From: Patescibacteria group bacterium
Lineage (GTDB): Bacteria; Patescibacteriota; Minisyncoccia; UBA6257; HR35
Assembly: GCA_030549895.1 (NCBI GenBank)
Contig: JAUQQM010000002.1
Span: forward strand, 1,037-65,036
Reading direction: 5' to 3'
Length of the DNA: 64,000 nt
Each line of letters opens with the position of its first letter. Position 1 is the first letter of the stretch. Shown here one piece after another: positions 2,152-56,596 of the stretch. The notes beneath the pieces were generated by a model. That model saw nothing but the letters and a program-made list of their open reading frames with translations, was not told the origin of the DNA and ran no database searches. Position numbers and translations under genes: made by a program.

Positions 2152-2159
2152 TATAATTA

Positions 2160-2168
2160 ATTATACCA
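2160..2168 (-). promoter_or_regulatory. Extended -10 (TGGTATAAT), leaderless-type, 8 nt before the ATG at 2151
   Basis: Plus-strand attatacca. There is no SD in the gap. Confidence 0.45.
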
Positions 2169-2197
2169 TAAAATTATAATTAAACCCCGATAATAAT

Positions 2198-2587
2198 ATG
2201 TCAATTCTTACTATAAAAACAAGGAAAAAACGAGAAATAATAGATATTACTGAAGATATTAACAGCTTGTTAAACAATCAAGAAAAAGAAAGTGGTTTAG
2301 TTTACCTTTTTGCCCTTCATACAACTTGTGCTTTAACTACTGCTGATTTAGATCCAGAAACAGATTTAGATTATTTAGATGCTTTCAAAGAAATTGTACC
2401 TAAATTAAAATATCGACATCCTCATAATCCAGAACATTTCCCTGATCATTTTCTTTCTTCACTTGTTGGTACTTCCCTCCTTCTTCCTTTTGAAAATAAA
2501 AGTCTAGTTTTAGGAACTTGGCAAAGAGTAATTTTAATAGAATTTGATGGACCAAGAGAAAGAAAGATTGTTGTCAAAATTATTTAA
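2198..2587 (+). CDS. YjbQ/UPF0047 family protein (secondary thiamine-phosphate synthase-like)
   Basis: 129 aa. It shows the family pattern: I.DIT..I, LFALHTTCALT..DLDPE, HFLSSLVG.SL.LP...L.LGTWQ.V.L.EFDGPR.R. Confidence 0.8.
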   Translation: MSILTIKTRKKREIIDITEDINSLLNNQEKESGLVYLFALHTTCALTTADLDPETDLDYLDAFKEIVPKLKYRHPHNPEHFPDHFLSSLVGTSLLLPFENKSLVLGTWQRVILIEFDGPRERKIVVKII

Positions 2588-3299
2588 TCTCATAAGTAAT
2601 AGTTACTGAAATTTTTATTTCTTGGGAGCCTGGTTCGATTTGAGGTGTTATTCCTGGTACTCCTGCCCCCATCTCTTTTAAAAATACTGGATAAGGTGGC
2701 GGGAAATATCCAGATGATTCTGTTATATTTACAATTTTTCCAAGTTTAAAACCTGCTATTTTAGCAATTTTCTCTGCCTTTTCCTTTGTCTCTTTAATTG
2801 CTTTTTCTCTTGCTTTATCTAAATAGACTTTTTCGTCATCAACTGTAAACTTAGGACCATAGATATTATTAGCACCATTTTGCACTGCCCCACTTAAAAT
2901 TTCTCCAACTTTATTTAAGTTTCTAATTTTTACAGAAAAACCTTGACTAATTGTATAACCAACTATTTCTGTCACTTTATCATATCTATATTTTGGAGTA
3001 ATTGAATAATTTTCTGTTTTTATATCCCTTTCTTCAATCCCTTGACTCTTTAAAAATTGAATTACTTTATTAAACTTTTCACTATTTTCCTTTTGAAGCT
3101 CGATTAAGTCCTTTCCTTCACTAATTAAACCAATATTTAATTCAGCAACATTGGGAAAAATTATTTCTTTAGCTTCACCAGTAACAGAAAAACTTCTTCG
3201 AATTTCTCTACTTTTTGTATATTCATAAACAAACCAAAAACTTACAATAATAAAAAGAAAAATTCCTATAATAATTGAAAATTTTAAAATTTTGCCCAT
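2580..3299 (-). CDS. SIMPL-domain (DUF541) secreted or membrane-anchored protein
   Basis: 239 aa with an N-terminal TM segment. The SIMPL-like repeat pattern includes SVTGEAKEIIFPNVAEL... and ...EIKISVTITYEI. Confidence 0.7.
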   Translation of the reverse strand: MGKILKFSIIIGIFLFIIVSFWFVYEYTKSREIRRSFSVTGEAKEIIFPNVAELNIGLISEGKDLIELQKENSEKFNKVIQFLKSQGIEERDIKTENYSITPKYRYDKVTEIVGYTISQGFSVKIRNLNKVGEILSGAVQNGANNIYGPKFTVDDEKVYLDKAREKAIKETKEKAEKIAKIAGFKLGKIVNITESSGYFPPPYPVFLKEMGAGVPGITPQIEPGSQEIKISVTITYEIK

Positions 3300-3304
3300 T
3301 TTAA

Positions 3305-3313
3305 ATTATAACA
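3305..3313 (-). promoter_or_regulatory. Extended -10 (TGTTATAAT), 5 nt before the SIMPL ATG at 3299
   Basis: Plus-strand attataaca. It overlaps the ndh stop codon. Confidence 0.45.
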
Positions 3314-4508
3314 CCCTCTTAAAAAATAAGAAGGAAATTAAATTTTCTAAAATTTTTATCTTATGAGGAAACGAAATCATCTTAACTAAATAAATAAACC
3401 TTTTAAGAAGAGAAACAAAAAATCCAGAAATAAAAATGTTAAAAATTTGAGCAACAGCATAATAGAAACCAAGAGAAATAATATCGCCGGAATGTTTATA
3501 TTTAAAAGTTTTTTTATTATTTAAATTCTTGATATTGAAAGCAAGAACTTTTGCTTGTTTAGTAGCGACTTGGGCTGATTGACTTAATTGTCTTTGATTT
3601 TCTAAGAAACAAGCAATATCTCCAAGACAAAAGACGTCATTATAAGCCTCCGAATTTGACTTTAAAAGTTGAAGATTTTCATTAACTAAAAGTCTACCGC
3701 TGTTATCTTTTAAAAAATCTCCTATAATTTCTGGAAGATTTGCTTTTATACCTGCAGTCCAAATAGTAGTTCTTGTATAAATAATCTCATCTCCTAATTT
3801 AACAAAATTTTCACCTACCTCAGTAACAATTTTACCTAAAATCAACTTTATACCTTTTTCTTTTAACTTTAATAAAGCTGCTTTACGCATTTTTTCTGAA
3901 AATTGAGTCAATATTTCATTTTTTCCTTCAACTAAAATTATTCTTATCCTTTCTAAAACTTTTTTTGAAATTTTATTTTTCATTATTCTAAAAAATAAAT
4001 CACTTAAATTTCCGACAAGTTCAACGCCCGTCGCTCCACCTCCAACAATAACGAAAGTTAAAAATTCATCAAAGTTTTCTTTATATTTTTCTTTTTCAAA
4101 AATTTCAAAAATATGATTTTTAAGTTTTAAAGCTGAGTCTAAACGTTTTAAAGACCAGCAATTTTCTTTCCCAATAATATTATAGTAATTAACTTCCGCG
4201 CCCAAACAAATTACTAAAATTTCATAATTTATTTCTTCTTGATTAACATAAACAAGTTTTTTATTTAAATCAATTTTATTTACTTTCCCAGAAATAAACT
4301 TAAACCGCAATGATTTTGATATTTCCTTGAAATAAACTCTTACAGCCTCCTCACTAACAAAGCCGCAAACAAAATCGATTAATAATGGAGTAAATAAAAA
4401 ATATTCATTATCGTTTACTAAAATAACCTCATTTTTATTTAAAAATTTTCCAAGATATTTTAAAGTGTAAATACCTCCAAAACCCCCACCTAAAATCAAA
4501 ATTTTCAT
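3306..4508 (-). CDS. ndh: Type II NADH:quinone oxidoreductase (NDH-2), FAD-dependent pyridine nucleotide-disulfide oxidoreductase
   Basis: 400 aa with two dinucleotide-binding motifs (KILILGGGFGG and FVIVGGGATGVE) and a hydrophobic C-terminal membrane-anchoring tail. Confidence 0.8.
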   Translation of the reverse strand: MKILILGGGFGGIYTLKYLGKFLNKNEVILVNDNEYFLFTPLLIDFVCGFVSEEAVRVYFKEISKSLRFKFISGKVNKIDLNKKLVYVNQEEINYEILVICLGAEVNYYNIIGKENCWSLKRLDSALKLKNHIFEIFEKEKYKENFDEFLTFVIVGGGATGVELVGNLSDLFFRIMKNKISKKVLERIRIILVEGKNEILTQFSEKMRKAALLKLKEKGIKLILGKIVTEVGENFVKLGDEIIYTRTTIWTAGIKANLPEIIGDFLKDNSGRLLVNENLQLLKSNSEAYNDVFCLGDIACFLENQRQLSQSAQVATKQAKVLAFNIKNLNNKKTFKYKHSGDIISLGFYYAVAQIFNIFISGFFVSLLKRFIYLVKMISFPHKIKILENLISFLFFKRVL

Positions 4509-4515
4509 AATTAGA

Positions 4516-5316
4516 TTATTCTTGGTTTTGAAACCTTAAAATACAACTATTATATTCTTTAACCTTTAAATTATAATCTTCAATAAAACTTTTTGTTTTT
4601 ATAATAAGCTCATTATAAGAATGAACTTTTCTATTATACTCGTCAATTAAAGAAAGGACTTCATAAGGATTTTCATTTTTTGTTATCCTTTCTAAAAGAT
4701 CATCTAATTCCTTTTTTAAAATTTCTATCTTATTTTTATTTTCATTTATTCTGGTTTGTAAATCTTCTGATGGTTTAGGGCATAAATCTTCAGGACTTCC
4801 AAAATGTTGAACAAAAACATATACTTCTTTTCCTTTAAAATTACCTTTTACAAAACCTACACCAAGATGATAGAAATTTTTATTTAAAATATTTTTTCTA
4901 TGAGGGGGGCTTTCCATCCAATCTCTAACTACTTCCTCCTCTGATTTTGGCCTACCCATAAACAAATTTTCTCCAACAATTATAAACTTGTAATTTGAAT
5001 CAATTATAAAATCTGTAAAATTCTTTCCAGATGGACTTTTATGATCAAAATATTGATTCAAAAGAATATCCTCTGCTTTTCTTTGAGCGCTTAAATCAAG
5101 CTTCTGGTCTGAAATTAAATCTTGAAGACCGTTTTGTCTTCGGTAAAAATTAGTATAGAAAATTATTTTTTCTTTATCAAATTGGTTGTCTTCAAAAGAA
5201 ATTGAGGTCGTTGAAAAATTTTTCTTTAACTCATTTAAAACTGGCTGTAAATTTTGATTATTCTTTGACAATAAGATTAACAATATAAGAATTATTAAAT
5301 TTTCTATTTTACTCAT
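4516..5316 (-). CDS. Secreted CAP/SCP/PR-1 domain protein with a C-terminal coiled coil
   Basis: 266 aa. CAP motifs are present: YFDHKSPSG, GENL, WMESPPHRKNILN..Y.HLGVG. Confidence 0.75.
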   Translation of the reverse strand: MSKIENLIILILLILLSKNNQNLQPVLNELKKNFSTTSISFEDNQFDKEKIIFYTNFYRRQNGLQDLISDQKLDLSAQRKAEDILLNQYFDHKSPSGKNFTDFIIDSNYKFIIVGENLFMGRPKSEEEVVRDWMESPPHRKNILNKNFYHLGVGFVKGNFKGKEVYVFVQHFGSPEDLCPKPSEDLQTRINENKNKIEILKKELDDLLERITKNENPYEVLSLIDEYNRKVHSYNELIIKTKSFIEDYNLKVKEYNSCILRFQNQE

Positions 5317-6132: not shown

Positions 6133-6137
6133 AAAAA

Positions 6138-6146
6138 ATTATACCA
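6138..6146 (-). promoter_or_regulatory. Extended -10 (TGGTATAAT), 5 nt before the ATG at 6132
   Basis: Plus-strand attatacca in the 18-nt gap after ccdA. Confidence 0.45.
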
Positions 6147-6150
6147 TAAT

Positions 6151-9158: not shown

Positions 9159-9164
9159 AATTTA

Positions 9165-9173
9165 ATTATATCA
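9165..9173 (-). promoter_or_regulatory. Extended -10 (TGATATAAT), 6 nt before the ppsA ATG at 9158
   Basis: Plus-strand attatatca. It lies across the rdgB stop codon. Confidence 0.45.
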
Positions 9174-9774: not shown

Positions 9775-9780
9775 ATTTTA

Positions 9781-9789
9781 ATTTTAACA
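9781..9789 (-). promoter_or_regulatory. Extended -10-like box (TGTTAAAAT), 6 nt before the rdgB ATG
   Basis: Plus-strand attttaaca. Confidence 0.4.
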
Positions 9790-9942
9790 AAGTACTAAAG
9801 TTAAATAAATAGTGATATATTCGCTTGGCCAAATCTGAGCTCAAAAAGTTAGTTTACCAAACTTAGGAAGAATAAATATCTTTTTCGAGAGTAATTTCGC
9901 TTCATTATTTTAAAATTCGCTACTGAAATTAGATTTTTCATA

Positions 9943-9951
9943 TGTTAAAAT
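9943..9951 (+). promoter_or_regulatory. Extended -10-like box (TGTTAAAAT), 6 nt before the argS ATG
   Basis: tgttaaaat followed by taaaat and then ATG. Confidence 0.4.
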
Positions 9952-9957
9952 TAAAAT

Positions 9958-11541: not shown

Positions 11542-11542
11542 T

Positions 11543-15907: not shown

Positions 15908-15908
15908 A

Positions 15909-16253: not shown

Positions 16254-16257
16254 AAAT

Positions 16258-17094
16258 TTAATCTAAACTTTTATTTTTAATTATAACATTAATAAGCACG
16301 AAAAAGAAAGCTATAAACATAAAGGTGTAAAGAGCGCCCTCAAAAATACCAATTCCTTTAGTAATTATTAGCTCCTTTAAGTTTGAAAAATCTTTCTCTA
16401 AAGAAAGGGAGAAGACAAAAACTTTTTTCACTGTTTCAACTCCATAATAAAAAGGATTAAATTGAGCTAACCTTATCATCCAAAGAGGAGTAAGCTCAAC
16501 TGGAAAATAAGCACCTGAAAGAAGAATTGCTGGAATAATAACATAAAAAAGTAAAATATCATAAGAACCAGCTTTCTTGAAAAATAAACCTAAAAAAATT
16601 CCTAAGGTTGCTGTTAAAATTCCTAAAACTAAAAGAGCTGGAAAAGTTAAAAATGTAATTGAAATTTCTTTAAAATAAATGAAGCCTAAAAGATTAACAA
16701 TAAGACCCTGCAAAGCGCCGATAAAACCAGCTGAAAGAATTTTCCCGAGAACTATTACCCAATCAGGTGTTGGACTTAAAATTAATGGCCTTAAAAATCC
16801 TCTTTCTTTTTCTTCAACAAATGAATGACCAAAATTAAAAGAAATGAAAATGACGGTAGTTGAAATCATCCCCGGAAAAATAAAAAGAAGATAACTAATT
16901 TCTCCTTGATAGTTAATGGCCCTGGCTATTTCGTTAATATTTACTATTTTTCCAAGACCTAAACCAAAAAATATTGTCCAGATAAAAGGTTGGATAACGG
17001 TGGTAATAACCTTAAATTTATTTCTCCACCACTTTAAAAATTCTCTGTAGGAAATAATTATAATCTGCAAAATTGTAATCTTAAACTTTTCCAT
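16258..17094 (-). CDS. ABC-2 type transporter permease
   Basis: 278 aa, 6 TM, overlapping the upstream ATPase gene by 14 nt. Confidence 0.75.
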   Translation of the reverse strand: MEKFKITILQIIIISYREFLKWWRNKFKVITTVIQPFIWTIFFGLGLGKIVNINEIARAINYQGEISYLLFIFPGMISTTVIFISFNFGHSFVEEKERGFLRPLILSPTPDWVIVLGKILSAGFIGALQGLIVNLLGFIYFKEISITFLTFPALLVLGILTATLGIFLGLFFKKAGSYDILLFYVIIPAILLSGAYFPVELTPLWMIRLAQFNPFYYGVETVKKVFVFSLSLEKDFSNLKELIITKGIGIFEGALYTFMFIAFFFVLINVIIKNKSLD

Positions 17095-17767: not shown

Positions 17768-17790
17768 AAAATATTATATAATAGTTATTA

Positions 17791-21961: not shown

Positions 21962-22003
21962 TTAAATTATTATATTAATTTCAATCTAATTATTCAATTT
22001 TAC

Positions 22004-22207: not shown

Positions 22208-22636
22208 CTAATTATAACACAGATTTTTATGGCAATATATTTTTACAATTTTTCTATTTTTAAAATTTGGATGCACCTTAATAATTCCCTTTGATGAGTT
22301 ATTACTTACAAATTTATTATCTCCTACATAAAATCCAAGATGATAATGATTATTTAATTTTGACCAAACAACAACACATGGAGCAATCAAAATTTTACTT
22401 TCCCTCCATCCGCTTCTTTCCATATCTTTTAAAGTACCTTTAACAGTGTAATGAATATTTTCCACAAGATTTACTATTTTTAACAAAGTACTTACATAAA
22501 AAGCACAACTTAATTTACCATTCTTGCAAATATCTTCAACTTTTTTGTTTTTCTTAAAATAAGCATTCCGGAAAAGCTTTATCCCAAGACTATTTTTAAT
22601 TAGAGCATTTAAAAAATCTCTGCAAGAAATTTCCAT
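22208..22636 (-). CDS. Putative NlpC/P60-like (papain-fold) cysteine hydrolase with no signal peptide
   Basis: The start is moved to the ATG at 22636 because the tracked start at 22651 overlaps the tRNA. Candidate Cys (GKLSCAFYVSTLL) and His (HYHLGFYVGDNKFVSNNS) motifs are present. Confidence 0.4.
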   Translation of the reverse strand: MEISCRDFLNALIKNSLGIKLFRNAYFKKNKKVEDICKNGKLSCAFYVSTLLKIVNLVENIHYTVKGTLKDMERSGWRESKILIAPCVVVWSKLNNHYHLGFYVGDNKFVSNNSSKGIIKVHPNFKNRKIVKIYCHKNLCYN

Positions 22637-22642
22637 AAAAAG

Positions 22643-22715
22643 CGCCCCCAACCGGAGTCGAACCGGTGTTTCCGCGCTGAGAACGCGGTGTCCTAGTCCA
22701 CTAGACGATGGGGGC
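22643..22715 (-). tRNA. tRNA-Glu (anticodon CUC)
   Basis: 73 nt: GCCCCCATCGTCTAGTGGACTAGGACACCGCGTTCTCAGCGCGGAAACACCGGTTCGACTCCGGTTGGGGGCG. It has a 7-bp acceptor stem, a 5-bp anticodon stem with loop TTCTCAG, a 4-nt variable loop and the T-loop TTCGACT. No CCA is encoded. Confidence 0.9.
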
Positions 22716-22987
22716 TAAATAACCTCGACAACCTTTACTTTTTTTACTTTTCCATTAAAGCAAACTTTCCTTTTAGTTCTAAAAACTACTTTCCCGTCTT
22801 TAAGAGCAAAAAGAGTATCATCATCACCAAGGCCAACATTTTTCCCAGGCAAAAATTTTGTTCCTCTTTGCCTGACAATTATATTTCCAGCTTTAACAAA
22901 TTCTCCAGCAAATCTTTTCACTCCAAGCCTTTTTGATTCACTATCTCTACCTAATTTTGTTGAACCACCTGATTTTGTATGAGCCAT
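22715..22987 (-). CDS. rpmA: 50S ribosomal protein L27
   Basis: 90 aa beginning [24 protein letters not shown]. Confidence 0.95.
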
Positions 22988-22988
22988 G

Positions 22989-23816
22989 TTACTTTCTTCT
23001 TTTTATTATTAATTTTGAAGACATTTTCTTTTTATTTCTTGTTTTTCTCCCACCAGTAATATTCCCCCAAGGATCTTTAGGTCTTCTTGTCCCTCTTGTA
23101 GTTTTCCCCTCTCCTCCACCATAAGGATGATCAACAGCATTCATAGCTGAACCTCTGACATGAGGTTTTCTTCCACGATGACGTGTTGCTCCAGCTTTAC
23201 CTAAATTTATATTTCGATGATCTGAATTTGAAACTTGACCGATTGAAGCCCAACAATCAGCTAAAATTTTTCTTATCTCACCTGAAGGCATTTTTACAAT
23301 TGCATACTTTCCTTCAACACCCATCATAACCGCAGAACTTCCAGCTGATCTTACAAGTTTTCCTCCAGTTCCAGGTTCAAGCTCTATATTATGAATTAAT
23401 GTTCCGGGATTTATATTTTTAAGTGGGAGTCGATTACCAACTTCTAAAGGAGCATTTTCACTAACTATAATTTGATCACCAACTTTAATTCCTTCAGGAG
23501 CAAGAATATATCTTCTTTCTCCATCTCTATAACAGACAAGAGCAATAAAAGCTGTCCTAAAAGGATCATATTCAATAGTTTCAACTTTTGCTGGAATGTC
23601 TTTCTTTTCCATTTTAAAATCAACTAACCTATAAAGTTTTTTATTTCCCCCTCCCCTAAACCTGACAGTAATTCTTCCTTTACTTCTTCCCTTTTTTTGA
23701 TGCACTCTAAAGGTAAGAGGTTTATATGGCTCTTGAGTTGTAAGAACTTTCTTATAGTCAATTCCAACTTTTCCTCTTTGTCCTGGAGTAGTTGGTTTGA
23801 AAAATTTCAAAGCCAT
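22989..23816 (-). CDS. rplB: 50S ribosomal protein L2
   Basis: 275 aa with RGKVG..., [13 protein letters not shown] and HPYGGGEGK. Confidence 0.95.
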
Positions 23817-23824
23817 ACAACTTA

Positions 23825-23833
23825 ATTATACCA
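23825..23833 (-). promoter_or_regulatory. Extended -10 (TGGTATAAT), 8 nt before the rplB ATG
   Basis: Plus-strand attatacca. There is no SD in the gap (taagttgt). Confidence 0.5.
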
Positions 23834-24951: not shown

Positions 24952-24960
24952 TGTTATAAT
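24952..24960 (+). promoter_or_regulatory. Extended -10 (TGTTATAAT), 8 nt before the ftsX ATG
   Basis: tgttataat followed by tataaatt and then ATG. Confidence 0.45.
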
Positions 24961-24968: not shown

Positions 24969-25883
24969 ATGCTAATTTTTCTTCAAAGAATTTTAAAAAA
25001 CGGTTGGAAAAATTTTATCAGAAATCCTCTTTTAAGTCTAGCAGCAAGTTTTATAAATTCTTTGATGATTTCAACGATGATAGGACTTATAGTTTTTTCT
25101 GCTTTTTCCAACATTTTAATAAAATATATTCAACAAAAATTAGATCTTTCAATCTATTTTAAAGAAACAGTCTCTGAAAATCAAATAAAATCTTTACAGG
25201 CAGAACTTTCAACTTTTGATTTTATCGAAAAAATAAATTACATCACTAAAGAAGAAGCTCTTGAAATTTTTAAAGAAAAAAATAAAGACAATCCCCTAAT
25301 TTTAGATGCCCTTGAAGAGTTAGGTAGTAATCCACTTTCAGCTTCTTTTGCTATTGTAACAAAAAAACCTGAAGACTACGAGAAATTAGCTCAATTTCTT
25401 AGGACCTCTAAATATAGAAATATAATTGAAGAAATTACTTTTTCAAGAAATAAAGAAATAATAGATAGGATTGTCAGCATTACCAATCAGGGTAAAAAAA
25501 TAATCTTTTTTATCATTTTTACCATCTCTTTAATAGCAATCATTGTTATCTTTAACACTATAAGAATAATTATTTTCTCCCAAAGAAGAGAGATAGAAAT
25601 TATGCAACTTATTGGTTCTTCAAAAAATTTTATTAAATTTCCTTATTTAGTTACCTCTACTCTTTATGGAATTTTTGGGATTATCTTTGCCGGAATAATA
25701 ATTTCAATTCTCTCAATGCTTCTTTCGCCATTCGTTGACAAGCTGATAACAAACTTTTCTCTTAAACAATACTTAATTGAAAATTTATCTTTGCTTCTAC
25801 TTTTAAGTTTTGCTTTTTCAGTTATCATCAACAACATCGCTACCTGGATAGCTATAAATAGATACCTTAATCTAAATAAATGA
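24969..25883 (+). CDS. ftsX: FtsX-like ABC permease (cell-division type, 4 TM with a large extracellular loop)
   Basis: 304 aa with the N-terminus L..ILKNGWKNFIRNPLLSLAA, one TM, a loop of about 130 aa and three C-terminal TM segments. No ftsE is adjacent. Confidence 0.75.
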   Translation: MLIFLQRILKNGWKNFIRNPLLSLAASFINSLMISTMIGLIVFSAFSNILIKYIQQKLDLSIYFKETVSENQIKSLQAELSTFDFIEKINYITKEEALEIFKEKNKDNPLILDALEELGSNPLSASFAIVTKKPEDYEKLAQFLRTSKYRNIIEEITFSRNKEIIDRIVSITNQGKKIIFFIIFTISLIAIIVIFNTIRIIIFSQRREIEIMQLIGSSKNFIKFPYLVTSTLYGIFGIIFAGIIISILSMLLSPFVDKLITNFSLKQYLIENLSLLLLLSFAFSVIINNIATWIAINRYLNLNK

Positions 25884-27109
25884 TTGAAAAATCTCAAAAA
25901 GGTTTCACTTTAGTAGAACTTATCGTAAGTGTTGCAATTTTAAGTATTTTAGCTACCTCGGTAATAATAATCACAAATCCAGCGGAACTAATGAAACAAG
26001 CAAGAGACTCACGAAGAATTTCAGACCTTACTGCTCTTTCAACAGCAATATCCTTTTATACAAATTCAGTCTCGCCTCCAAATATGGATGGTGTCGGAAA
26101 TTCAACTTGCAAAGATGGCTCAAATAAAAAAGTTTATGTTTCTGTTCCTAGTAATCAAACACCGCCCTCAAATCTTCCTCCAGGCTGGAGTTATGGACAA
26201 ACTTCTGAAACAAATTTAAAAAAAGTTAATGGTACTGGTTGGATACCTATTAATTTTACTTCAGTTATTGGTGGGCCACCAATTTCAGCTTTACCAATAG
26301 ACCCAGTTAATTCATTTTCAAAAAATCTATTTTATTCTTATACCTGCAGTTCAAATGGTAATTTCGAGCTTACAGCAAGATTTGAATCAAAAAAATATAA
26401 TCTAAATGGTTCTAATCCTCAAACAGTGCTTGACGGTGGCACAGATAGGACAATTTATGAAGTTGGCTCTGATTTAACCTTAGATCCATTTTCTCCTGTC
26501 CTTGAACTTTCCTTTGATGAAAGAACAGGCACAATCGCTTATGATAGCTCTGGAAATAATAATCATGGAACTTTATATAACGGACCTCAATGGGTAGATG
26601 GTAAAGTAGGCAAAGCTTTAAGTTTTGATGGAAGTGATGATTATGTAGCTGTTAACGATCCATTTTCTAACAACGTTAATTTTTCAATTGTTTTATGGGT
26701 AAATACGCGAGTAATAAATGACGGTTTTTATCATGGTTTCATTGGTAAACAAGGTGATGCATGTAGAAAACCAGGAATGTGGTTAGCTCCTAGTAGTAAT
26801 GGTCTCCATTATGATTCTTATGATTCATCATGCTCAAATAGGTTCTATAATATTTACGCTAACTTTTTTGACGGTTCTAATATATGGCATCACATAGTAT
26901 GGGTAAAGAATGGTACTACATATCATTTTTATAAAAATGGCGGTCTATTTGGAACCGCCACTGCTCCAAATAATTTTTATACAGCTAATACAAGTTACTG
27001 GATTGGAAGAGTCGATAATTTTTGGAATGGCCTCATCGACGAAGTTAGAATTTACAATCGCGCCCTTTCTGCTGAAGAAATTAAAGCTATATATGAGGCT
27101 ACTAAGTGA
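25880..27109 (+). CDS. Type IV pilin-like (pseudopilin) protein with a C-terminal LamG/concanavalin-A-like domain
   Basis: Prepilin signal KG/FTLVELIVSVAILSIL. LamG-type tail: GKALSFDGSDDYV...WHHIVWV...LIDEVRIYNRALSAEEI. Confidence 0.8.
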   Translation: MIEKSQKGFTLVELIVSVAILSILATSVIIITNPAELMKQARDSRRISDLTALSTAISFYTNSVSPPNMDGVGNSTCKDGSNKKVYVSVPSNQTPPSNLPPGWSYGQTSETNLKKVNGTGWIPINFTSVIGGPPISALPIDPVNSFSKNLFYSYTCSSNGNFELTARFESKKYNLNGSNPQTVLDGGTDRTIYEVGSDLTLDPFSPVLELSFDERTGTIAYDSSGNNNHGTLYNGPQWVDGKVGKALSFDGSDDYVAVNDPFSNNVNFSIVLWVNTRVINDGFYHGFIGKQGDACRKPGMWLAPSSNGLHYDSYDSSCSNRFYNIYANFFDGSNIWHHIVWVKNGTTYHFYKNGGLFGTATAPNNFYTANTSYWIGRVDNFWNGLIDEVRIYNRALSAEEIKAIYEATK

Positions 27110-27406
27110 ATTCGGTTGCAAGCATTATAACTAATAAATTACCAGAATAAAATTAAAACCTAAAAAAAATTTATAAGAGAAAGCAAAAATTTCTGGGCTC
27201 ATTCTGAATATTCTAAAAATTTTATATTAAACTTCAAACAAAATATTCAGCTATATTTTTACCAAAACCAGAAATATTCAAAAAACTTAAAGATTAAAAT
27301 TATGAGAGCTTTTATTACAGTAAAATTTAATTAAAATGATTGCTCGAGTCTAAAATAAAGAAATTCCTTTTTGCTATAGCAAGTGAATATCAAAAGCTAG
27401 AAAACT

Positions 27407-29943: not shown

Positions 29944-29979
29944 AAAAATATTATACATCAATGGTATATAATAATTTAA

Positions 29980-31737: not shown

Positions 31738-31746
31738 ATTATAACA
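31738..31746 (-). promoter_or_regulatory. Extended -10 (TGTTATAAT), 6 nt before the rpsP ATG
   Basis: Plus-strand attataaca. It sits back to back with the promoter at 31755. Confidence 0.5.
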
Positions 31747-31754: not shown

Positions 31755-31763
31755 TGTTATAAT
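31755..31763 (+). promoter_or_regulatory. Extended -10 (TGTTATAAT), 6 nt before the cysteine desulfurase ATG
   Basis: tgttataat followed by tcattt and then ATG. Confidence 0.5.
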
Positions 31764-35455: not shown

Positions 35456-35492
35456 CTTTTAAAATTTTAATAAAAATTCTAATAAAATCAAG

Positions 35493-36875: not shown

Positions 36876-36881
36876 AAAATA

Positions 36882-37718
36882 TTATAATTGATTTAAACCT
36901 AAATAATCAATTGAATTTTTAAAAATTGTCTCTTTAGCAACTTCAAAATCTATATTTTTAATTTGAGCTATTTTTTCTAAAATTATTTTAACATTTTTTG
37001 GCTCATTAAGAGTTCCTCTTAAAGGCTCTGGACTAACATAAGGAGAGTCAGTTTCTGTTAAAATCCTTTCAAGAGGAACATAAGAAAGAACTTCTCTTTT
37101 TTCATTTGCATTTTTAAAAGTAATTACTCCACCAAAAGAAAGATAAAAACCCAAATCTAAAAATTTTTTTGCATATTCTTTTGAGCCTGAGAAAAAATGG
37201 ATATTTGCTTTAATGGGTAAATATTTTTTAACAAGACTATAAAAGTCTTCAAAAGCACTCTCATCTTTACTTCTTAAATGAATCATAAGACTTTTTTTAT
37301 GTTTTTTAGCAAAAACAATTTGGCTTTCACAAACATCCCATTGTCTTTTTTTGATTTCTTTTATTTTGTCAGCTGAAAGATTATCAAAATAAAAATAATC
37401 TAAACCAAACTCTCCAATTACTAAAGTTTTTTCATTAATTAAACTTCCATAAAAATTTTCATCAAAAAATTCTTCCTTTTCTATTTTACCTTCAAAAGGA
37501 TCTTCAAGATCACTCCAGGTATGATGAGGATGAAGACCTATACCAGCCCAAACACCATCAAAAAGTGCAAGTCTTACAGCTTCTTTTGAAGTACTTTTAC
37601 AAGTACCTATATTCAAAAACCAGACTCCTTGGGATAAATTCTCTTTTATTTTTTCTTCTGGGTTTTGAAAAACTTTAAAATTAAGATGGGCATGAATATC
37701 AAAAAATTTCACTTCCAT
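36882..37718 (-). CDS. tatD: TatD family metal-dependent hydrolase/DNase
   Basis: 278 aa with FDIHAHL, GEFGLDY and a TETDSPY-type motif. Confidence 0.85.
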   Translation of the reverse strand: MEVKFFDIHAHLNFKVFQNPEEKIKENLSQGVWFLNIGTCKSTSKEAVRLALFDGVWAGIGLHPHHTWSDLEDPFEGKIEKEEFFDENFYGSLINEKTLVIGEFGLDYFYFDNLSADKIKEIKKRQWDVCESQIVFAKKHKKSLMIHLRSKDESAFEDFYSLVKKYLPIKANIHFFSGSKEYAKKFLDLGFYLSFGGVITFKNANEKREVLSYVPLERILTETDSPYVSPEPLRGTLNEPKNVKIILEKIAQIKNIDFEVAKETIFKNSIDYLGLNQL

Positions 37719-39447: not shown

Positions 39448-39456
39448 TATAAAATA

Positions 39457-39957
39457 TTATACGAAATCTTTAGAGATTATGGGTAAGTATTTGGCAAATG
39501 GTTTTTGAAGAATTGATTGATAAAAAGTAATTCTTTTTGGTTTTACATAGTAATTTAGAGGAACAAAAATTTTGGGTAGCTTTTTAATATTTGTTGGTTT
39601 GAATCTTAAAAGATTTAAATGAGGATAAAAATCATTAACTTTATATTTTTCGAAAATAGGAGTAAAAACATCCATATTTTCATTTTTAAAATGGACCCAG
39701 ACCATTCGCGGAAAATTTCCTGGAGAGTAATCTACTTTCCAGCAAAAAATCTGTGGTTTTTTAATTTCAAGACTTAAGAGAAAATTTTTTGTCTCTTCTA
39801 AAGTTTTTTCATCTATATTTCCTAAAAAAGCTAAAGTAAGATGCCAGTTTTCTCTTCTAATCCATTTCCCTGGTAATTTTTTCTTTATCTTCTTTACAAT
39901 TACCTCTATCTCATCAAAAAATTCATCTTCAAAATCAAGAGCAATAAAAGTTCTCAT
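39457..39957 (-). CDS. thpR: 2H phosphoesterase (2'-5' RNA ligase / RNA 2',3'-cyclic phosphodiesterase, LigT/ThpR-like)
   Basis: 166 aa. The first HxTx motif is HLTLAFLG. The second is HLNLLRF, with Asn in place of Thr. Confidence 0.65.
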   Translation of the reverse strand: MRTFIALDFEDEFFDEIEVIVKKIKKKLPGKWIRRENWHLTLAFLGNIDEKTLEETKNFLLSLEIKKPQIFCWKVDYSPGNFPRMVWVHFKNENMDVFTPIFEKYKVNDFYPHLNLLRFKPTNIKKLPKIFVPLNYYVKPKRITFYQSILQKPFAKYLPIISKDFV

Positions 39958-41272: not shown

Positions 41273-41281
41273 ATTATAACA
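41273..41281 (-). promoter_or_regulatory. Extended -10 (TGTTATAAT), 5 nt before the glyQS ATG
   Basis: Plus-strand attataaca within a 36-nt divergent gap. Confidence 0.5.
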
Positions 41282-41289: not shown

Positions 41290-41298
41290 TGTTATAAT
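41290..41298 (+). promoter_or_regulatory. Extended -10 (TGTTATAAT), 5 nt before the ychF ATG
   Basis: tgttataat followed by tttag and then ATG. Confidence 0.5.
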
Positions 41299-41303
41299 TT
41301 TAG

Positions 41304-44545: not shown

Positions 44546-44548
44546 AAT

Positions 44549-45544: not shown

Positions 45545-45554
45545 GCTCTTTAAA

Positions 45555-45563
45555 ATTATACCA
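45555..45563 (-). promoter_or_regulatory. Extended -10 (TGGTATAAT), 10 nt before the mreB ATG at 45544
   Basis: Plus-strand attatacca. Confidence 0.45.
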
Positions 45564-45606
45564 TACAAGAGCTAAAAATTTTCTTCTTTAAGATTTATAA
45601 TAAATT

Positions 45607-47040
45607 ATGATAAAGAAGGAAGACTTAAAAAAAATAGATGAGTTAATCTGGGAAATACCAAGATCATTTAGAGAGGATATGAAAGTTGCAGCGAGATTTT
45701 TTGCTTCTGAAAAAATTTTACCTGAAATTTTTAAAGATAAAAGCCTCTGGCAACTTATTAATTTAACTACTTTACCAGGAATCTATAAATATGCCTTAGC
45801 TATGCCCGATATCCATGAAGGTTATGGTTCGCCAATTGGTGGAGTTGCCTGTTTTGATCTTAAAGAAGGAATAATTTCTCCTGGAATTTGTGGTTATGAT
45901 ATAAATTGTGGCGTAAGATTACTTTTAAGTCCATTTTCTTACGATGAAATAAAAAATAAAATTCAAAAAATTACTGAACAAATTTACAAAGAAGTACCTT
46001 CTGGTGTGGGTCAAGGCGGTTGGTGGAATTTAAATGAAAACGAAATGGAAAATATCCTTTACTGGGGAGCTCAATATCTTTTAAAAATTGGTTATGCTCT
46101 CGAAGATGATATAGAAAATACAGAATCAAAAGGTTGTCTTGAGGGAGCTAATCCAGATAAAGTCTCAGATCATGCCAAAAAAAGAGGTAAGGATCAAATA
46201 GGAACAATAGGTGCGGGAAACCATTTTGTAGAAATTCAAAAAGTTCAAGAAATTTATAGTCATGAGGAGGCTAAAGTTCTTGGTTTAGAAAAAGATAGAA
46301 TAACTATTATGATTCACTGTGGCAGTCGAGGATTAGGTCATCAAGTAGCAACTGACTATATAAGAAAAGCAATAAAATATTTAAAAGAAAACAAAATAAA
46401 TCTAGTTGATATTGAGCTTGCTTATTTTCCTTTTGAAAGTAAGGAAGGAAACGATTATTTAGAAGCAATGAAAGCTTCTGCTAATTTCGCTTGGGCAAAT
46501 AGAGAATTTATAGCTTATGAGATAAGAAAAGCATTTAATAAAGTTTTTGGGACTAAACCAGAAGAAATAAAGCAAGTTTATGATGTAGCTCATAACATAG
46601 TAAAAATAGAAGAATATGATGGGAAAAAATTAGTAATCCATAGAAAAGGGGCAACTCGAGCATTTTGGAAAGGTTATGATGAACTTCCTGAAAAATATAA
46701 AAATATTGGCCAACCAACATTAATACCAGGATCAATGGGAACAGCAAGTTATGTTTTAATCGGCCAAATTAAAGCAAAAGAAATTTCTTTTGGAACCGCA
46801 CCCCATGGAGCAGGAAGAGTAATGTCAAGAAATGAAGCTAGAAGAAAAATAGAAGGAAGAGAATTAAAAAAAAGACTTGAGGAAAAAGGAATAGCTGTTG
46901 CTGAGGGAAGTCTTTCTGGATTGGCCGAAGAAGCACCTGAAGCTTATAAAGATGTAAATGAGGTTGTAGAAATTGTTCATCAAATTGGTATTGCCAAAAA
47001 AGTTGCTAAATTAGTACCTCTAGGAGTAATAAAAGGTTAA
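45607..47040 (+). CDS. rtcB: RNA 3'-phosphate ligase RtcB
   Basis: 477 aa with GAGNHF, HCGSRGLGHQ and PHGAGR motifs. TATAAT lies 5 nt upstream. Confidence 0.95.
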   Translation: MIKKEDLKKIDELIWEIPRSFREDMKVAARFFASEKILPEIFKDKSLWQLINLTTLPGIYKYALAMPDIHEGYGSPIGGVACFDLKEGIISPGICGYDINCGVRLLLSPFSYDEIKNKIQKITEQIYKEVPSGVGQGGWWNLNENEMENILYWGAQYLLKIGYALEDDIENTESKGCLEGANPDKVSDHAKKRGKDQIGTIGAGNHFVEIQKVQEIYSHEEAKVLGLEKDRITIMIHCGSRGLGHQVATDYIRKAIKYLKENKINLVDIELAYFPFESKEGNDYLEAMKASANFAWANREFIAYEIRKAFNKVFGTKPEEIKQVYDVAHNIVKIEEYDGKKLVIHRKGATRAFWKGYDELPEKYKNIGQPTLIPGSMGTASYVLIGQIKAKEISFGTAPHGAGRVMSRNEARRKIEGRELKKRLEEKGIAVAEGSLSGLAEEAPEAYKDVNEVVEIVHQIGIAKKVAKLVPLGVIKG

Positions 47041-47863
47041 AAATTAAAATCAATTATCTGGAGTGCTTTATTTTTTAAAGAAATTACAACTTGATTTAAT
47101 ATTTCATAGGGACTATAAGAGGCTGGATTTTCTTGAAGGACTTTTTCTAAAGTTTCTCGCCAGCAAATTCTTAGCTCTGTGTTTATATGAACTATATTTA
47201 TACCACAATCTATTGACTTCTTGATATCTTGACTTGCAATACCAGAACCTCCATGTAAAACTAAAATTGTCTGAGTAAGCTCTTTTATTTTTTTAATTCT
47301 TTCAAAATCAAGATTTGGCTTTGTGATTGTAGAAATTCCATGTAAATTACCTACAGAGATAGCTAAAGCATCCACTTTAGTTTCTTCAACAAAAATTTTA
47401 GCTTTATAAGGGTCGGTTAAATCTTCTTCCTCGATGTTAATTGACTCTTTTATAACTTCTGATTTTCCTTTAATATTCCCTAATTCTCCTTCTATAAAAA
47501 TATCTTTATTTTTTTCTTTAGCATACTCTACAAAATCTTTGGTAATTCGCAAATTTTCCTCAAAAGAAAAATGAGACATATCAAAAGTAATGCTATCATA
47601 ACCTAAAGATAGAGCTTCTTGAGCACTTTCCTTGCTTTTACAATGATCAGCATTTAAAAAAACTTTTGCTCCTTTTTCCCTTTCAAAATCAATTATTTTT
47701 TTAAGTCTTTCGCTTCCAAGATAATTCCTTTCTTTTTCTGAAGCTCCTAAACAAAGCCATACATTTTTTTCTCTTGTAATTTGACAGTAACTTAAAATCT
47801 GTTCTAGAGTAGAAACATTAAAGTGAAAAATATATTTTTGTTTTTTTATTATCTCTTTAATAT

Positions 47864-47867
<4 letters not shown>
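47037..47867 (-). CDS. fba: Class II fructose-1,6-bisphosphate aldolase
   Basis: 276 aa with a TTG start overlapping the atpC stop (TTGA). Motifs: NADHCKS, LHGGSG. Confidence 0.8.
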
Positions 47868-50005
<2,138 letters not shown>

Positions 50006-50012
50006 AAAAAAT

Positions 50013-50021
50013 ATTATAACA
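50013..50021 (-). promoter_or_regulatory. Extended -10 (TGTTATAAT), 7 nt before the efp ATG
   Basis: Plus-strand attataaca. Confidence 0.5.
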
Positions 50022-50040
50022 TAAACAAAATGTTAAAAAT

Positions 50041-50049
50041 TGCTATAAT
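50041..50049 (+). promoter_or_regulatory. Extended -10 (TGCTATAAT), 7 nt before the murC ATG at 50057
   Basis: tgctataat followed by attactt and then ATG. Confidence 0.5.
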
Positions 50050-50056
50050 ATTACTT

Positions 50057-54027: not shown

Positions 54028-54028
54028 A

Positions 54029-54448
54029 TTATTTCTTTTGAATCTTTATTTTTTTAACTTTTTCTTTCTTTACTTTTGGAAGGACTATATGCAAAATTCC
54101 ATCCTTATAACTAGCTGAAGCACCTTCGTCAGTAACTTTTGAAGGTAAAGAAACAACTTTTTTAAAAGCACCTCTTTTTATTTCTTTTCTATAGTAATTC
54201 TCTTTTTTTTCTTCTCTTTTTTCTTCGACAGAACCAGAAACTCTTAAAAGGCTATCTTCTACTTCAATTTCTACATTTTCAGTATTAATTCCTGGAATAG
54301 CTAAATCAACATAAACATTTTTATCATCCTCATAAACATCAGCAGCTATCTCTGAGACTTTAAGAGCTGGGAAAAATGGTATTAGTTCTTCTTCAGAGAA
54401 AAATTTTTCTAAATCTCTGAAAAATGGTTCCCATCTTATTATGCTCAT
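54029..54448 (-). CDS. Small heat-shock protein (Hsp20/alpha-crystallin)
   Basis: 139 aa with the alpha-crystallin domain ...FKKVVSLP..V....[13 protein letters not shown]. Confidence 0.9.
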
Positions 54449-54462
54449 AATTTAAAAATAAC

Positions 54463-54486
54463 CCCCTCTTAAAATTTTAAGAGGAG
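54463..54486 (-). terminator. 10-bp hairpin plus U-tract directly after grpE, containing the hsp20 Shine-Dalgarno (terminator/attenuator or RNA thermometer)
   Basis: The mRNA sense is CUCCUCUUAAAAUUUUAAGAGGGG followed by GUUAUUUUUAAAUUAUG. The 3' arm, AAGAGGGG, is the only SD for hsp20. Confidence 0.5.
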
Positions 54487-54487
54487 A

Positions 54488-55012
54488 TTATTTTTCATGA
54501 AATATTACTGAGACTTGAGCTGGTCTTATAACTGTTCCATGTAAAGCATAACCTCTGGCAAAAACTGAAACTATCTTTCCCTCATCTTCACCCTGACATT
54601 CTTTAACTTGGCAAGTTTTTCTTGAAATTGCCTCATGAAATCTTGGATTAAGAATTTCTCCTTCTTTTGGTTCTATAATTTCAAGACCATACTTTTTTAA
54701 AATACCCTCTAATTGACCCTTAATCAAACTAAGGCCTTTTAAAATTTCTTCATCTTTTACATTTTCTAAAGCAAGAACAAAGCTATCAAGAACATTTATA
54801 AGTTCTGACATGATATTGAAATTCGCCAAAAGAATGTATTGTTCCTTTCTTTTTTCTTCTTCTTGCTGATATTTAAGAAAGTCTGCTTTTGCTCTTTGAA
54901 GCCCAGCAAAATATTCTTCTTTTTCTTTCAAAGCCTTATTTAATTCCTCTCTTAATTCCTTTATTGTTTGTTCTAAATTCGGCAATTCTTGTTCTTTTTT
55001 TTCCTCTTCCAT
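54488..55012 (-). CDS. grpE: Nucleotide exchange factor GrpE
   Basis: 174 aa with an N-terminal coiled coil and the C-terminal GrpE pattern ...FHEAI...V...GY.L.G.VIRPA.V.V. Confidence 0.9.
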   Translation of the reverse strand: MEEEKKEQELPNLEQTIKELREELNKALKEKEEYFAGLQRAKADFLKYQQEEEKRKEQYILLANFNIMSELINVLDSFVLALENVKDEEILKGLSLIKGQLEGILKKYGLEIIEPKEGEILNPRFHEAISRKTCQVKECQGEDEGKIVSVFARGYALHGTVIRPAQVSVIFHEK

Positions 55013-55019
55013 AATATAT

Positions 55020-55037
55020 ATTATAATCTATTAGATT
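55020..55037 (-). promoter_or_regulatory. grpE promoter: TATAAT (55020-55025, 7 nt before the ATG) abutted by the 13-nt palindrome AATCTA-N-TAGATT (55025-55037)
   Basis: Plus-strand attataatctattagatt. The palindrome occupies the spacer just upstream of the -10 box. Confidence 0.35.
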
Positions 55038-55044
55038 TTTATTT

Positions 55045-55446
55045 TCAATAAGCTTTAGAAAGCTTATCGGCGAGTTTATTTTCTTTTCTAGGAATGTGAA
55101 TAAAATCAACTTTTTTAAAATCTAAAGTCAAATTGTGAAGCTCAATAAAAAGATCTTTTATATCATCATCTTTAATTTTCCATTTACCAAGCATTTGACT
55201 AACTAAAAGTTGACTATCAGAATGAACTTTTACAGTAAAGTTCTTTACATTTTTTCCAAATATTTGTTTTATCTTTTTAAGAGCAAAAATAGCACTTAAA
55301 TACTCTGCCTGGTTATTTGTTTTTGCTTGGACAGATTTTTTGTAAATTCTTTTTTTCTTTCCATCATCAATAACAACTCCTATTCCAGCACCATTAGAAA
55401 ATGAGCCATCAACCCAAACATTTAGATAGCCTTCAGTTTCTTTCAT
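55045..55446 (-). CDS. rnhA: Ribonuclease HI
   Basis: 133 aa with the DEDD-type pattern (VWVDGS, NNQAEY, HSDSQL, N.LADKL). Confidence 0.85.
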   Translation of the reverse strand: MKETEGYLNVWVDGSFSNGAGIGVVIDDGKKKRIYKKSVQAKTNNQAEYLSAIFALKKIKQIFGKNVKNFTVKVHSDSQLLVSQMLGKWKIKDDDIKDLFIELHNLTLDFKKVDFIHIPRKENKLADKLSKAY

Positions 55447-56582
55447 AATCTAATTATCTCATATCTTAAAGAGAGAAGATCATAAATAATTTTTGCTATT
55501 TTAGCTCCAGCATTTTTAAGGTAAAATTTACTAGCATTAATTTTCATTTGGTTATAAATCTCCTTGTTATTAAGAATTTCCTCTATCTGGAAAAGTAAAA
55601 TATTTGGTTTAAGATTTTCTGGATGAATAACTCTACAAGCACCAGCTTCTTGATACAAAAGAGCGTTTGAGACTTGATGAGGGCCAACTACATCTTCTCT
55701 TAGGGGAATAATAATGCTTGGTATTCCAAAGTAAGAAATTTCAAAAATACTACCACTTCCTGCTCTTGAAATAACTAAAGAAGCTAGATTATAAAACTTA
55801 CCTAATTCTTCCTGACTCAGAAAAGAAAAAACATGGTAAGCTGATGACCTTTTTAAATTTCTAATAGCAAAATAAGCAAGATCTTTAGTTTCTTGAAAAA
55901 GACTAGCACCAGTAAGATGAACGACTTGATATTTTTCTATTAACTTAGGTAAAATTTCTATTATAATTTCGTTTATCTCTCTTGCTCCTTGAGAGCCTCC
56001 CATTATAAGAATGAGTTTTTCATCTTTTGATATATTCATTTTTTTTAGTTCTTCCTCAGAAAATTTATAACTTATAATATCTTCAAAAACTGGCTGGCCA
56101 GTTAAAATAAATTCCTTTTTTTCTTTCCTTGGAAAGTAATCTTTTGTTTTTTCAAAGGAAATTAAAATTTTTTCAGCAAAATACGAAGAAACCTTATTAG
56201 AAAGACCTGGTAAAGAATCAGACTCATGAATTATAACTGGAATTCCAAAAATATAAGCAATTAAATTAACAAAAAAACTAACTGAGCCTCCTTTAGAGAA
56301 AACTAAATTTGGCATTTTAATTAAAAGGGCAAAAAATGTCTTAAGAATTATTAAAGGAATTTTTAAAATATCAAGAAATGTCTTTAAAGAAAAATATCTT
56401 CTTATTTGAAAATCAGCTAGCCAAATTGGTTTTATTTCTTCAAAATTAAATGGAAAGCGCGGTTTTGGACCTAACCAATAAAATTCAACCTCTAAATCAT
56501 ATTTTTTAAATTCCCTAACTATTTGTTTTATTGGTATTAGATGACCACCAGTAGCTCCTCCAGTAAAAAACACTACAAACAT
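55443..56582 (-). CDS. murG: UDP-N-acetylglucosamine--N-acetylmuramyl-(pentapeptide) pyrophosphoryl-undecaprenol GlcNAc transferase
   Basis: 379 aa with GGATGGHLIP and the C-terminal GT-B motif ISRAGSGSIFE. Confidence 0.85.
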   Translation of the reverse strand: MFVVFFTGGATGGHLIPIKQIVREFKKYDLEVEFYWLGPKPRFPFNFEEIKPIWLADFQIRRYFSLKTFLDILKIPLIILKTFFALLIKMPNLVFSKGGSVSFFVNLIAYIFGIPVIIHESDSLPGLSNKVSSYFAEKILISFEKTKDYFPRKEKKEFILTGQPVFEDIISYKFSEEELKKMNISKDEKLILIMGGSQGAREINEIIIEILPKLIEKYQVVHLTGASLFQETKDLAYFAIRNLKRSSAYHVFSFLSQEELGKFYNLASLVISRAGSGSIFEISYFGIPSIIIPLREDVVGPHQVSNALLYQEAGACRVIHPENLKPNILLFQIEEILNNKEIYNQMKINASKFYLKNAGAKIAKIIYDLLSLRYEIIRL

Positions 56583-56587
56583 TCAAA

Positions 56588-56596
56588 ATTATAACA
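56588..56596 (-). promoter_or_regulatory. Extended -10 (TGTTATAAT), 5 nt before the murG ATG
   Basis: Plus-strand attataaca. Confidence 0.5.

Follow-up and report, generated by a model that had tools for sequence, protein, structure and literature searches.

The window analysed here is a 64-kb stretch of contig JAUQQM010000002.1 from a Patescibacteria group bacterium, and our subject is the TATAAT box that stands directly before the start codons of many of its transcription units. With 28.5% G+C the window is A/T-rich and dense, with ~68 genes and one tRNA-Glu; neither it nor the loci of its close relatives contain an rRNA gene. Among reference genomes (Parcubacteria, Minisyncoccia and other Patescibacteria metagenome-assembled genomes) the nearest GlyRS is 56% identical, which places the organism among uncultivated members of the Candidate Phyla Radiation. 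The gene names given in a first-pass annotation of this DNA were verified with Pfam or orthologue calls (SIMPL, ppsA, rdgB, argS, ABC ATPase, dprA, rumA-like, rplB, ftsX, rnc, nusB, rpsP, cysteine desulfurase, cysS, pcm, glyQS, ychF, mreB, rtcB, efp, murC, grpE, murG, atpD, atpC and hsp20). That annotation had also listed 25 genes that open a unit and carry a box. All 25 boxes are present, with the sequences and spacings claimed for them: TGnTATAAT accounts for 14, TGTTAAAAT for two and plain TATAAT for nine. Between the end of the hexamer and the start codon lies a gap d, counted in nucleotides (nt), which is 5 nt at nine of these sites, 6 nt at six, 7 nt at five, 8 nt at four and 10 nt at one (mreB). 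Three box genes come in addition to the earlier list, orf500 (35455), polA (57375) and the iPGM gene, with d of 6-8 nt; the true start of the iPGM gene lies just past the right window edge, where TATAAT is followed by 6 nt and then ATG. The 28 box genes treated below are those whose start codon follows the end of a TATAAT or TAAAAT at a distance of 5-10 nt.

Probable -10 boxes of unit-first genes

At 28.5% G+C, TATAAT-like strings are common, and the boxes might be imagined as a chance by-product of A/T-rich intergenic DNA, an explanation to which we give practically no credence. When all 4096 hexamers were ranked by their occurrence 5-8 nt before an ATG opening an open reading frame (ORF) of at least 80 aa, TATAAT took rank 1, with 21 of its 120 occurrences at that position compared to 1.1% for A/T-only hexamers (binomial P = 4e-19 for the excess), and the next-ranked hexamers are this motif shifted along the sequence. 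Shuffled upstream 45-mers yielded 0.95 genes with a box (maximum 6) against 22 observed. A distance histogram, which had been proposed as a check, has a single sharp peak, with TAnAAT reaching 0.33 per ORF at 5-8 nt and 0.015-0.045 in all remaining bins to 48 nt. In dinucleotide-preserving shuffles 4.2 copies of TGNTATAAT are expected and the window has 16, all of which face a gene start. The distance is 5-10 nt for 14 of them and 26-27 nt for the two before genes 16253 and 22183; the 128 kb of two-strand window sequence hold no further copy of the nine-base TGnTATAAT motif. TATAAT overall is mildly enriched (120 vs 90 in the same type of shuffle). Two relatives that are equally A/T-rich, L094 and L095 (24-27% G+C), lack the peak, and these controls together refute chance.

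The boxes are distributed by gene class. Among divergent first genes 17/20 have a box at 5-10 nt, among co-directional genes behind a gap 9/23, and among genes overlapping the upstream gene 2/24 (divergent versus overlapping, Fisher P = 9e-8). The first-pass figure of 25 in roughly 30 unit-first genes can be judged fair: if a first gene is defined objectively as one that is divergent or follows a gap of 20 nt or more, 21/29 carry a box, and 26/34 do when short-gap co-directional box genes are counted too, a share of ~72-76% of units. It had also been stated that no Shine-Dalgarno (SD) sequence lies between box and ATG, and this holds for all 28 genes (0/28); the gap of 5-10 nt is almost pure A/T, and the sole GAGG, in gene 3299, sits upstream of the box.

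When the 28 sites are aligned, 21 have T at -17, 19 a purine (R) at -16, 22 T at -15 and 17 G at -14. The consensus is T-R-T-G-n-TATAAT, an extended -10 ("-16 region") motif. The TGn extension was found at 16 of the 25 sites of the earlier list and at 17 of the 28 considered here. The -35 region is weak, with a mean best TTGACA match of 3.04 of 6 compared to 2.57 at random positions, although several plain boxes have a TTGnnn hexamer at 16-18 nt. A compensation between TGn extension and -35 element was set aside, because properly spaced TTGnnn, counted by eye, occurs at 5/12 plain and 3/16 extended boxes, numbers too small to use. Generic scans for two-hexamer promoters and for terminators gave counts at or below those of shuffled sequence and are uninformative at 28% G+C.

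Could the box be a signal for the ribosome? An A/T-rich motif may act as a non-SD translation signal on leadered mRNA, with no promoter involved, as in the Bacteroidetes-type group B of GeneMarkS-2. Some SD-independent signal is needed, given that the 16S rRNA of a relative is without anti-SD and that SD use in the window is marginal (see below). However, a ribosome-binding signal is expected before internal genes too, and in group B the motif precedes first and internal genes alike, whereas here it precedes 2/24 overlapping internal genes. In addition, TRTGn is a motif contacted by sigma factors and not by ribosomes, and the plain boxes often come with TTGnnn at promoter-like distance, all of which makes a translation signal very unlikely. 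Thus, the best-supported assignment from the sequence is that the boxes are -10 elements of housekeeping sigma-70-family promoters, mostly of the extended type. In divergent pairs, two such promoters would fit into 23-51 nt.

The individual sites are as follows, with strand and d in brackets. In the left part of the window, the divergent first gene orf101 (ATG 2151) has TGGTATAAT at 2160-2168 (-, d 8) and the SIMPL gene (ATG 3299) has TGTTATAAT at 3305-3313 (-, d 5), with a hairpin at 3314-3334 directly upstream. TGGTATAAT is found again before orf158 (ATG 6132) at 6138-6146 (-, d 5). The ppsA box, TGATATAAT at 9165-9173 (-, d 6; ATG 9158), lies inside the rdgB 3' end, and TGTTAAAAT serves both rdgB/Ham1 (9781-9789, -, d 6; ATG 9774) and argS (9943-9951, +, d 6; ATG 9958). 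Plain TATAAT at 17773-17778 (-, d 5) precedes the ABC ATPase gene (ATG 17767) and overlaps the opposite-strand dprA box at 17777-17782 (+, d 8; ATG 17791). The rumA-like gene starts with GTG (21961) and has TATAAT at 21969-21974 (-, d 7) with TTGAAT at 17-nt spacing. Next to it in the series are rplB (ATG 23816) with TGGTATAAT at 23825-23833 (-, d 8) and ftsX (ATG 24969) with TGTTATAAT at 24952-24960 (+, d 8) and TTGAAA at 17-nt spacing. The pair rnc (ATG 29943) and nusB (ATG 29980) has TATAAT at 29950-29955 (-, d 6) and 29967-29972 (+, d 7), and the pair rpsP (ATG 31731) and cysteine desulfurase (ATG 31770) has TGTTATAAT at 31738-31746 (-, d 6) and 31755-31763 (+, d 6).

Further to the right, orf500 (ATG 35455), new compared to the earlier list, has TAAAAT at 35464-35469 (-, d 8) with TTGATT at 16-nt spacing, and cysS (ATG 36875) has TATAAT at 36881-36886 (-, d 5) with TTGATT at 18-nt spacing. 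For pcm (ATG 39447) the box is TATAAT at 39456-39461 (-, d 8); glyQS (ATG 41267) and ychF (ATG 41304) both have TGTTATAAT, at 41273-41281 (-, d 5) and 41290-41298 (+, d 5). The mreB box is TGGTATAAT at 45555-45563 (-, d 10; ATG 45544), followed on the other strand by TATAAT at 45596-45601 (+, d 5) for rtcB (ATG 45607). Before efp (ATG 50005) lies TGTTATAAT at 50013-50021 (-, d 7), and before the 424-aa murC (ATG 50057) lies TGCTATAAT at 50041-50049 (+, d 7). TATAAT at 55020-55025 (-, d 7) with TTGAAA at 17-nt spacing belongs to grpE (ATG 55012), and TGTTATAAT at 56588-56596 (-, d 5) with TTGTGA at 17-nt spacing to murG (ATG 56582). The polA gene (ATG 57375) has TAAAAT at 57363-57368 (+, d 6) with TTGAAA at 17-nt spacing; this box sits within the end of tsaE and is possibly an internal leaderless promoter. 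Two TGTTATAAT boxes are leadered exceptions. One, at 16280-16288 (-), lies 26 nt before ATG 16253 and is without SD; the other, at 22211-22219 (-), lies 27 nt before ATG 22183 of a 59-aa ORF and has the SD-like AAGAGGGATAA in its leader.

The five short divergent spacers measure 23, 36, 38, 36 and 51 nt, as the first-pass annotation had given them. In the shortest, the hexamers of the ABC ATPase gene and dprA overlap on opposite strands (17773-17782), while the boxes of the other divergent pairs are 11-25 nt apart. Two polymerases cannot sit on the overlapping pair together, and the paired genes may therefore be expressed in competition. The rdgB/argS divergent spacer (9775-9957) is, with 183 nt, long for this genome. 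It has identical 18-nt ends, TGTTAAAATTAAAATATG, that carry two tandem TAAAAT hexamers, and its remaining ~150 nt have no Rfam match.

Start codons and conservation among relatives

Any statement on the distance between box and start codon depends on the start codon. If starts were mis-assigned and the true ones lay downstream, the transcripts would have ordinary leaders that merely begin near an in-frame ATG. Competing start candidates exist for murC, and in a few genes a further start codon follows after 2-12 codons. In 24/28 box genes, however, no start codon of the ORF lies 5' of the ATG next to the box, which an in-frame stop precedes by 0-12 codons, and the next candidate in-frame start is mostly 20-120 codons further downstream. 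The Pfam domains of the encoded proteins start at residues 1-7. It had been claimed that the box picks the sensible start where the longest ORF is over-extended, and orthologue lengths agree with this in three cases: from the box-adjacent start rnc encodes 216 aa (214 aa in relatives), rpsP 96 aa (94-95 aa in relatives) with the N-terminus MLKIRF, which contains the universal MLKIR opening of RpsP, and mreB 331 aa, as in all relatives. The fourth case, murC, is less certain. The automatic call in a near-identical contig takes ATG 50030, 27 nt upstream, and predicts 433 aa; the TGCTATAAT box would then fall within the coding sequence. In the 424-aa version from ATG 50057 the Mur ligase domain runs from residue 2. 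On these grounds we regard the start codons of the box genes as secure at the sequence level and a general mis-assignment as highly improbable, a shade less credible even than the translation signal discussed above.

The relatives L083, L085/L086 and L087 have gene order in common with the window and 70-73% GlyRS identity. In these syntenic relatives a box at 5-9 nt is kept in ~19/22 orthologous or first genes although the spacers have diverged, TATAAT is likewise the top hexamer (11/107), and the histogram peak reaches 0.31. Kept boxes include those of mreB (6-7 nt), ychF (5-7 nt), pcm (7-9 nt, in three relatives), rpsP and cysteine desulfurase (both in L083 and L085), and of rnc where it is the first gene. 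In the spacer between rpsP and cysteine desulfurase both boxes are invariant, while spacer and discriminator vary. At shorter range, a strain that is 97.1% identical over 20.9 kb (601 differences) has 10 promoters in common with the window, and these contain 0 substitutions in hexamer, discriminator and ATG where the average rate would predict ~4.4 (estimated Poisson P ~0.012). Three changes lie nearby, all of them in the three positions directly upstream of plain boxes. The organism or a 97%-identical strain is also represented in the reads SRR27730028 and SRR21619497 and in the JGI contig Ga0105160_1000287.

Beyond these relatives the pattern ends. L094 and L095, with 66-67% MreB identity, do not show the 5-8 nt peak (0/55 and 1/68), and the mreB box of relatives at this distance lies 11-12 nt from the start. 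A sharp 5-8 nt peak is also absent from 13 further A/T-rich loci of the Candidate Phyla Radiation (CPR), and the idea of a trait general to the CPR was rejected, with seven distant CPR loci giving 5/207 in addition to the L094 and L095 counts. As a control, loci from Clostridia run through the same analysis returned AGGAGA and AAGGAG as top hexamers; because these are SD hexamers, we consider the method validated. The 5-8 nt peak is lineage-specific.

One gene differs between the window and its relatives in this respect. The GlyRS N-terminus is 7 residues longer in the window lineage (437 aa versus 430 aa; window 41267 compared to L083 3982, L085 5385 and L093 about 3917), and in the relatives the glyQS box lies 13-21 nt from a start that is 7 codons further in, with the same TGTTATAAT sequence at 13 nt. 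It looks as if the glyQS start codon may have been moved up to the promoter by a 7-codon N-terminal extension.

Internal genes, Shine-Dalgarno sequences and other features of the window

The first-pass annotation had assigned SD sequences to the operon-internal genes. The five examples that it quoted (atpC, atpD, the histidine kinase, hsp20 and the 59-aa ORF) are in the sequence, but as a general statement the claim does not stand, as only ~4-7 of ~40 internal genes have one. Loose SD-like strings before internal genes are not above the coding-strand background (P = 0.3-0.4). A strict SD, that is AGGAG or GGAGG at 3-9 nt, precedes 4/39 genes compared to 0.6 expected (P = 0.003). An SD-dependent second initiation mode thus finds no support in the loose motifs and marginal support in the strict ones. 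The start of most internal genes overlaps the stop codon before it or directly adjoins it. The 4-nt ATGA overlap occurs in 11, and 20/47 co-directional junctions show an overlap of 1, 4, 8 or 10 nt or exact abutment. Because most internal genes are arranged in this way and SD examples are few, translational coupling, judged here by the geometry of the junctions, is likelier to be the main second mode than SD recognition.

The 16S rRNA could be inspected in a relative. The gene of L094 (67% MreB identity) is complete (L094 1814-3332, -), and its 3' tail reads GGACCAAUUCUGUU compared to GGAUCACCUCCUUA in E. coli; the anti-SD CCUCC is absent. This agrees with a survey (Tsurumaki et al. 2022, PMC9297842) that detected an anti-SD motif in no more than 48% of Parcubacteria; its authors confine themselves to the change in the rRNA and suggest no other way of starting translation. 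In the L094 locus itself, SD hexamers and the 5-8 nt promoter peak are both missing.

One of the SD-like sequences lies in a structured region. In the grpE-hsp20 interval (54440-54500, -) a hairpin of -24 kcal/mol (z = -6.9) is formed by pairing of CUCCUCUUAAAA with UUUUAAGAGGGG. The hsp20 AUG lies within the outer stem, and both the start codon and the SD-like GAGGGGG are sequestered. The hairpin is followed by UUAUUUUU and has no Rfam match. It could be an RNA thermometer for hsp20 or, because UUAUUUUU comes after it, a candidate terminator of grpE.

Several further features of the window may be mentioned here. The rplB gene (L2) lies outside an S10-type cluster and heads the unit rplB-rpmA(L27)-tRNA-Glu (22642-23816, -), in which the tRNA-Glu begins on the final base of the rpmA stop codon. 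At 47037-50005 (-) efp is followed by atpD (F1 beta), atpC (epsilon) and a class II fructose-bisphosphate aldolase gene with overlaps of 17, 4 and 4 nt; no further ATP synthase subunits are encoded near this unit. A 409-aa protein with a type IV prepilin-like N-terminus (GFTLVELIV...) is encoded at 25880-27109, after ftsX and with a 4-nt overlap. The two largest non-coding stretches are 27110-27406 (~297 nt, between convergent genes), which contains no ORF of at least 25 aa, and 1071-1346 (276 nt); neither has an Rfam match.

Proposed leaderless initiation and its relation to known systems

Motif, position, restriction to unit-first genes and conservation are observed directly, and from these it seems quite probable that extended -10 sigma-70 promoters give rise to mRNAs of the first genes that are leaderless or have leaders of 0-3 nt. 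An extended -10 element (TRTGnTATAAT) would need little or no -35 element, and RNA polymerase would start ~6-9 nt past the hexamer. With 5-8 nt between hexamer and start codon, the predicted transcription start coincides with the A of the ATG or lies 0-3 nt from it. The first cistron would then be a leaderless mRNA without SD, of which ribosomes would recognise the 5'-terminal AUG directly, and the downstream cistrons would rely on termination-reinitiation coupling in most cases and on a real SD in a few.

The boxes might be real and most transcripts nevertheless originate from promoters farther upstream, within neighbour genes, or from read-through, in which case leadered mRNAs would dominate and starts close to the box would be minor. 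Several boxes indeed stand 6-9 nt past a co-directional upstream gene with no terminator between (3299, 9158, 36875 and 39447), and terminator-like hairpins are not enriched in the window, which makes read-through likely. Yet 17 divergent first genes have no co-directional gene upstream, the window offers no extra TGnTATAAT from which such transcripts could start, the TAnAAT density farther upstream is flat, and the exact spacing of the boxes is kept in relatives. We therefore consider predominantly leadered transcripts unlikely.

A number of points weigh against leaderless transcripts. The transcription start, leaderless translation and coupling are what we infer, and all of them go beyond the DNA pattern, which moreover comes from a sample of one 64-kb window with ~30 transcription units. 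Some 90 plain TATAAT hexamers lie elsewhere in the window, and the hexamer alone is therefore unable to define a promoter. The nine boxes with d 5 need initiation at the 6th base after the hexamer, a minor position in E. coli start-site studies, and if the polymerase began one or two bases further on, these promoters would yield mRNAs without an intact AUG. At d of 8-10 nt the mRNAs would probably have leaders of 1-3 nt rather than none. A pyrimidine at the base before the ATG is no more or less frequent in box genes than in other genes, and was dropped as a start-site signature.

Leaderless initiation at extended -10 promoters would have consequences beyond this window. We regard it as possible, at somewhat less than even chances, that a genus- or family-level lineage of Patescibacteria (Parcubacteria/Minisyncoccia-like) uses leaderless mRNA by default, with reinitiation downstream and with the SD nearly or fully dispensable. 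Such dispensability would be consistent with the loss of the anti-SD in L094. Because A/T-rich relatives at ~66% MreB identity are without the peak, the switch to leaderless initiation would be recent, and the clade would offer a natural series for the transition from leadered to leaderless genes, of which glyQS is maybe one example. Gene expression in Patescibacteria is almost unstudied, and the fusion of promoter and start codon together with coupling, if confirmed, would be an initiation route that works without an anti-SD. There are also practical aspects. Gene callers that assume an SD misplace starts, as seen in the over-extended ORFs of rnc, rpsP and mreB and in the conflicting calls for murC, and the box is usable as a start marker. 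For CPR genetic tools, TRTGnTATAAT with an ATG 5-7 nt behind it would serve as a minimal signal for expression.

As a promoter class the boxes resemble the extended -10 or Gram-positive "-16 region" TRTG promoters, with which they share T-R-T-G-n-TATAAT and a weak or absent -35 element. The TRTG motif of the "-16 region" was reportedly described for Gram-positive bacteria by Voskuil and Chambliss in 1998, and other examples of the extended -10 type are the galP1-type promoters of E. coli and Mycoplasma promoters with weak -35. In contrast to what we propose here, extended -10 promoters in model organisms usually drive leadered mRNAs; the likeness concerns the promoter class only and says nothing on leaders. 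The overlap geometry of the window is that of ATGA-type stop/start coupling, which is generic in compact genomes, and the anti-SD-lacking Parcubacteria (PMC9297842) belong to the same broad group, with L094 lacking the anti-SD and SD use in the window being marginal. In archaea with leaderless transcripts (haloarchaea, Sulfolobus; GeneMarkS-2 group D) most units are leaderless as well (60-80%) and internal genes are otherwise served; however, the TATA/BRE box there lies ~22-26 nt upstream and polymerase and initiation factors are different.

The closest published counterpart is GeneMarkS-2 group C, in which a Pribnow box lies 6-8 nt before the first genes in operons and other signals are used elsewhere (PMC6028130). 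This group was assigned to 1028 of 4769 bacteria, mainly Actinobacteria (90%) and Deinococcus-Thermus (97%). Its layout is the accepted mark of leaderless transcription, and differential RNA sequencing has validated it in M. tuberculosis and D. deserti (PMC6028130). For group C, 25-50% of operons are predicted to be leaderless, and in D. deserti 167/262 mapped genes (64%) are leaderless (PMC6028130; also PMC9581028). Like Mycobacterium tuberculosis, Streptomyces, Corynebacterium and Deinococcus deserti, the window has a box close to the first genes with no SD there and separate signals for internal genes, a dual start model in one genome. The two-mode layout that the first-pass annotation had presented as unfamiliar therefore stands as an architecture, with boxes at first genes and other means internally; its novelty does not, since group C is published, nor does SD as the general internal mode.

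The differences from group C are nevertheless clear. Group C genomes are mostly of high G+C and have a looser TAnnnT box, whereas here a near-consensus extended TGnTATAAT occurs in Patescibacteria at 28.5% G+C; 25-50% of operons there compare to ~72-76% of unit-first genes here, and the internal genes of the window are mostly without SD. In the literature searched we found no report that ties leaderless mRNAs to CPR, Patescibacteria, Parcubacteria or Saccharibacteria, although a mention in the TM7x transcriptome (PubMed 35975994) is possible. The layout in Patescibacteria, the near-consensus extended box in a reduced genome of 28% G+C and the high share of units thus appear to be undescribed. 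If transcripts begin where the boxes suggest, about three quarters of the units would start at the AUG, equal to or above the value for D. deserti, which is the highest bacterial leaderless figure among the sources compared (PMC6028130). To the leaderless-dominated cases of Actinobacteria and Deinococcus this would add a third bacterial lineage, one that is A/T-rich and genome-reduced.

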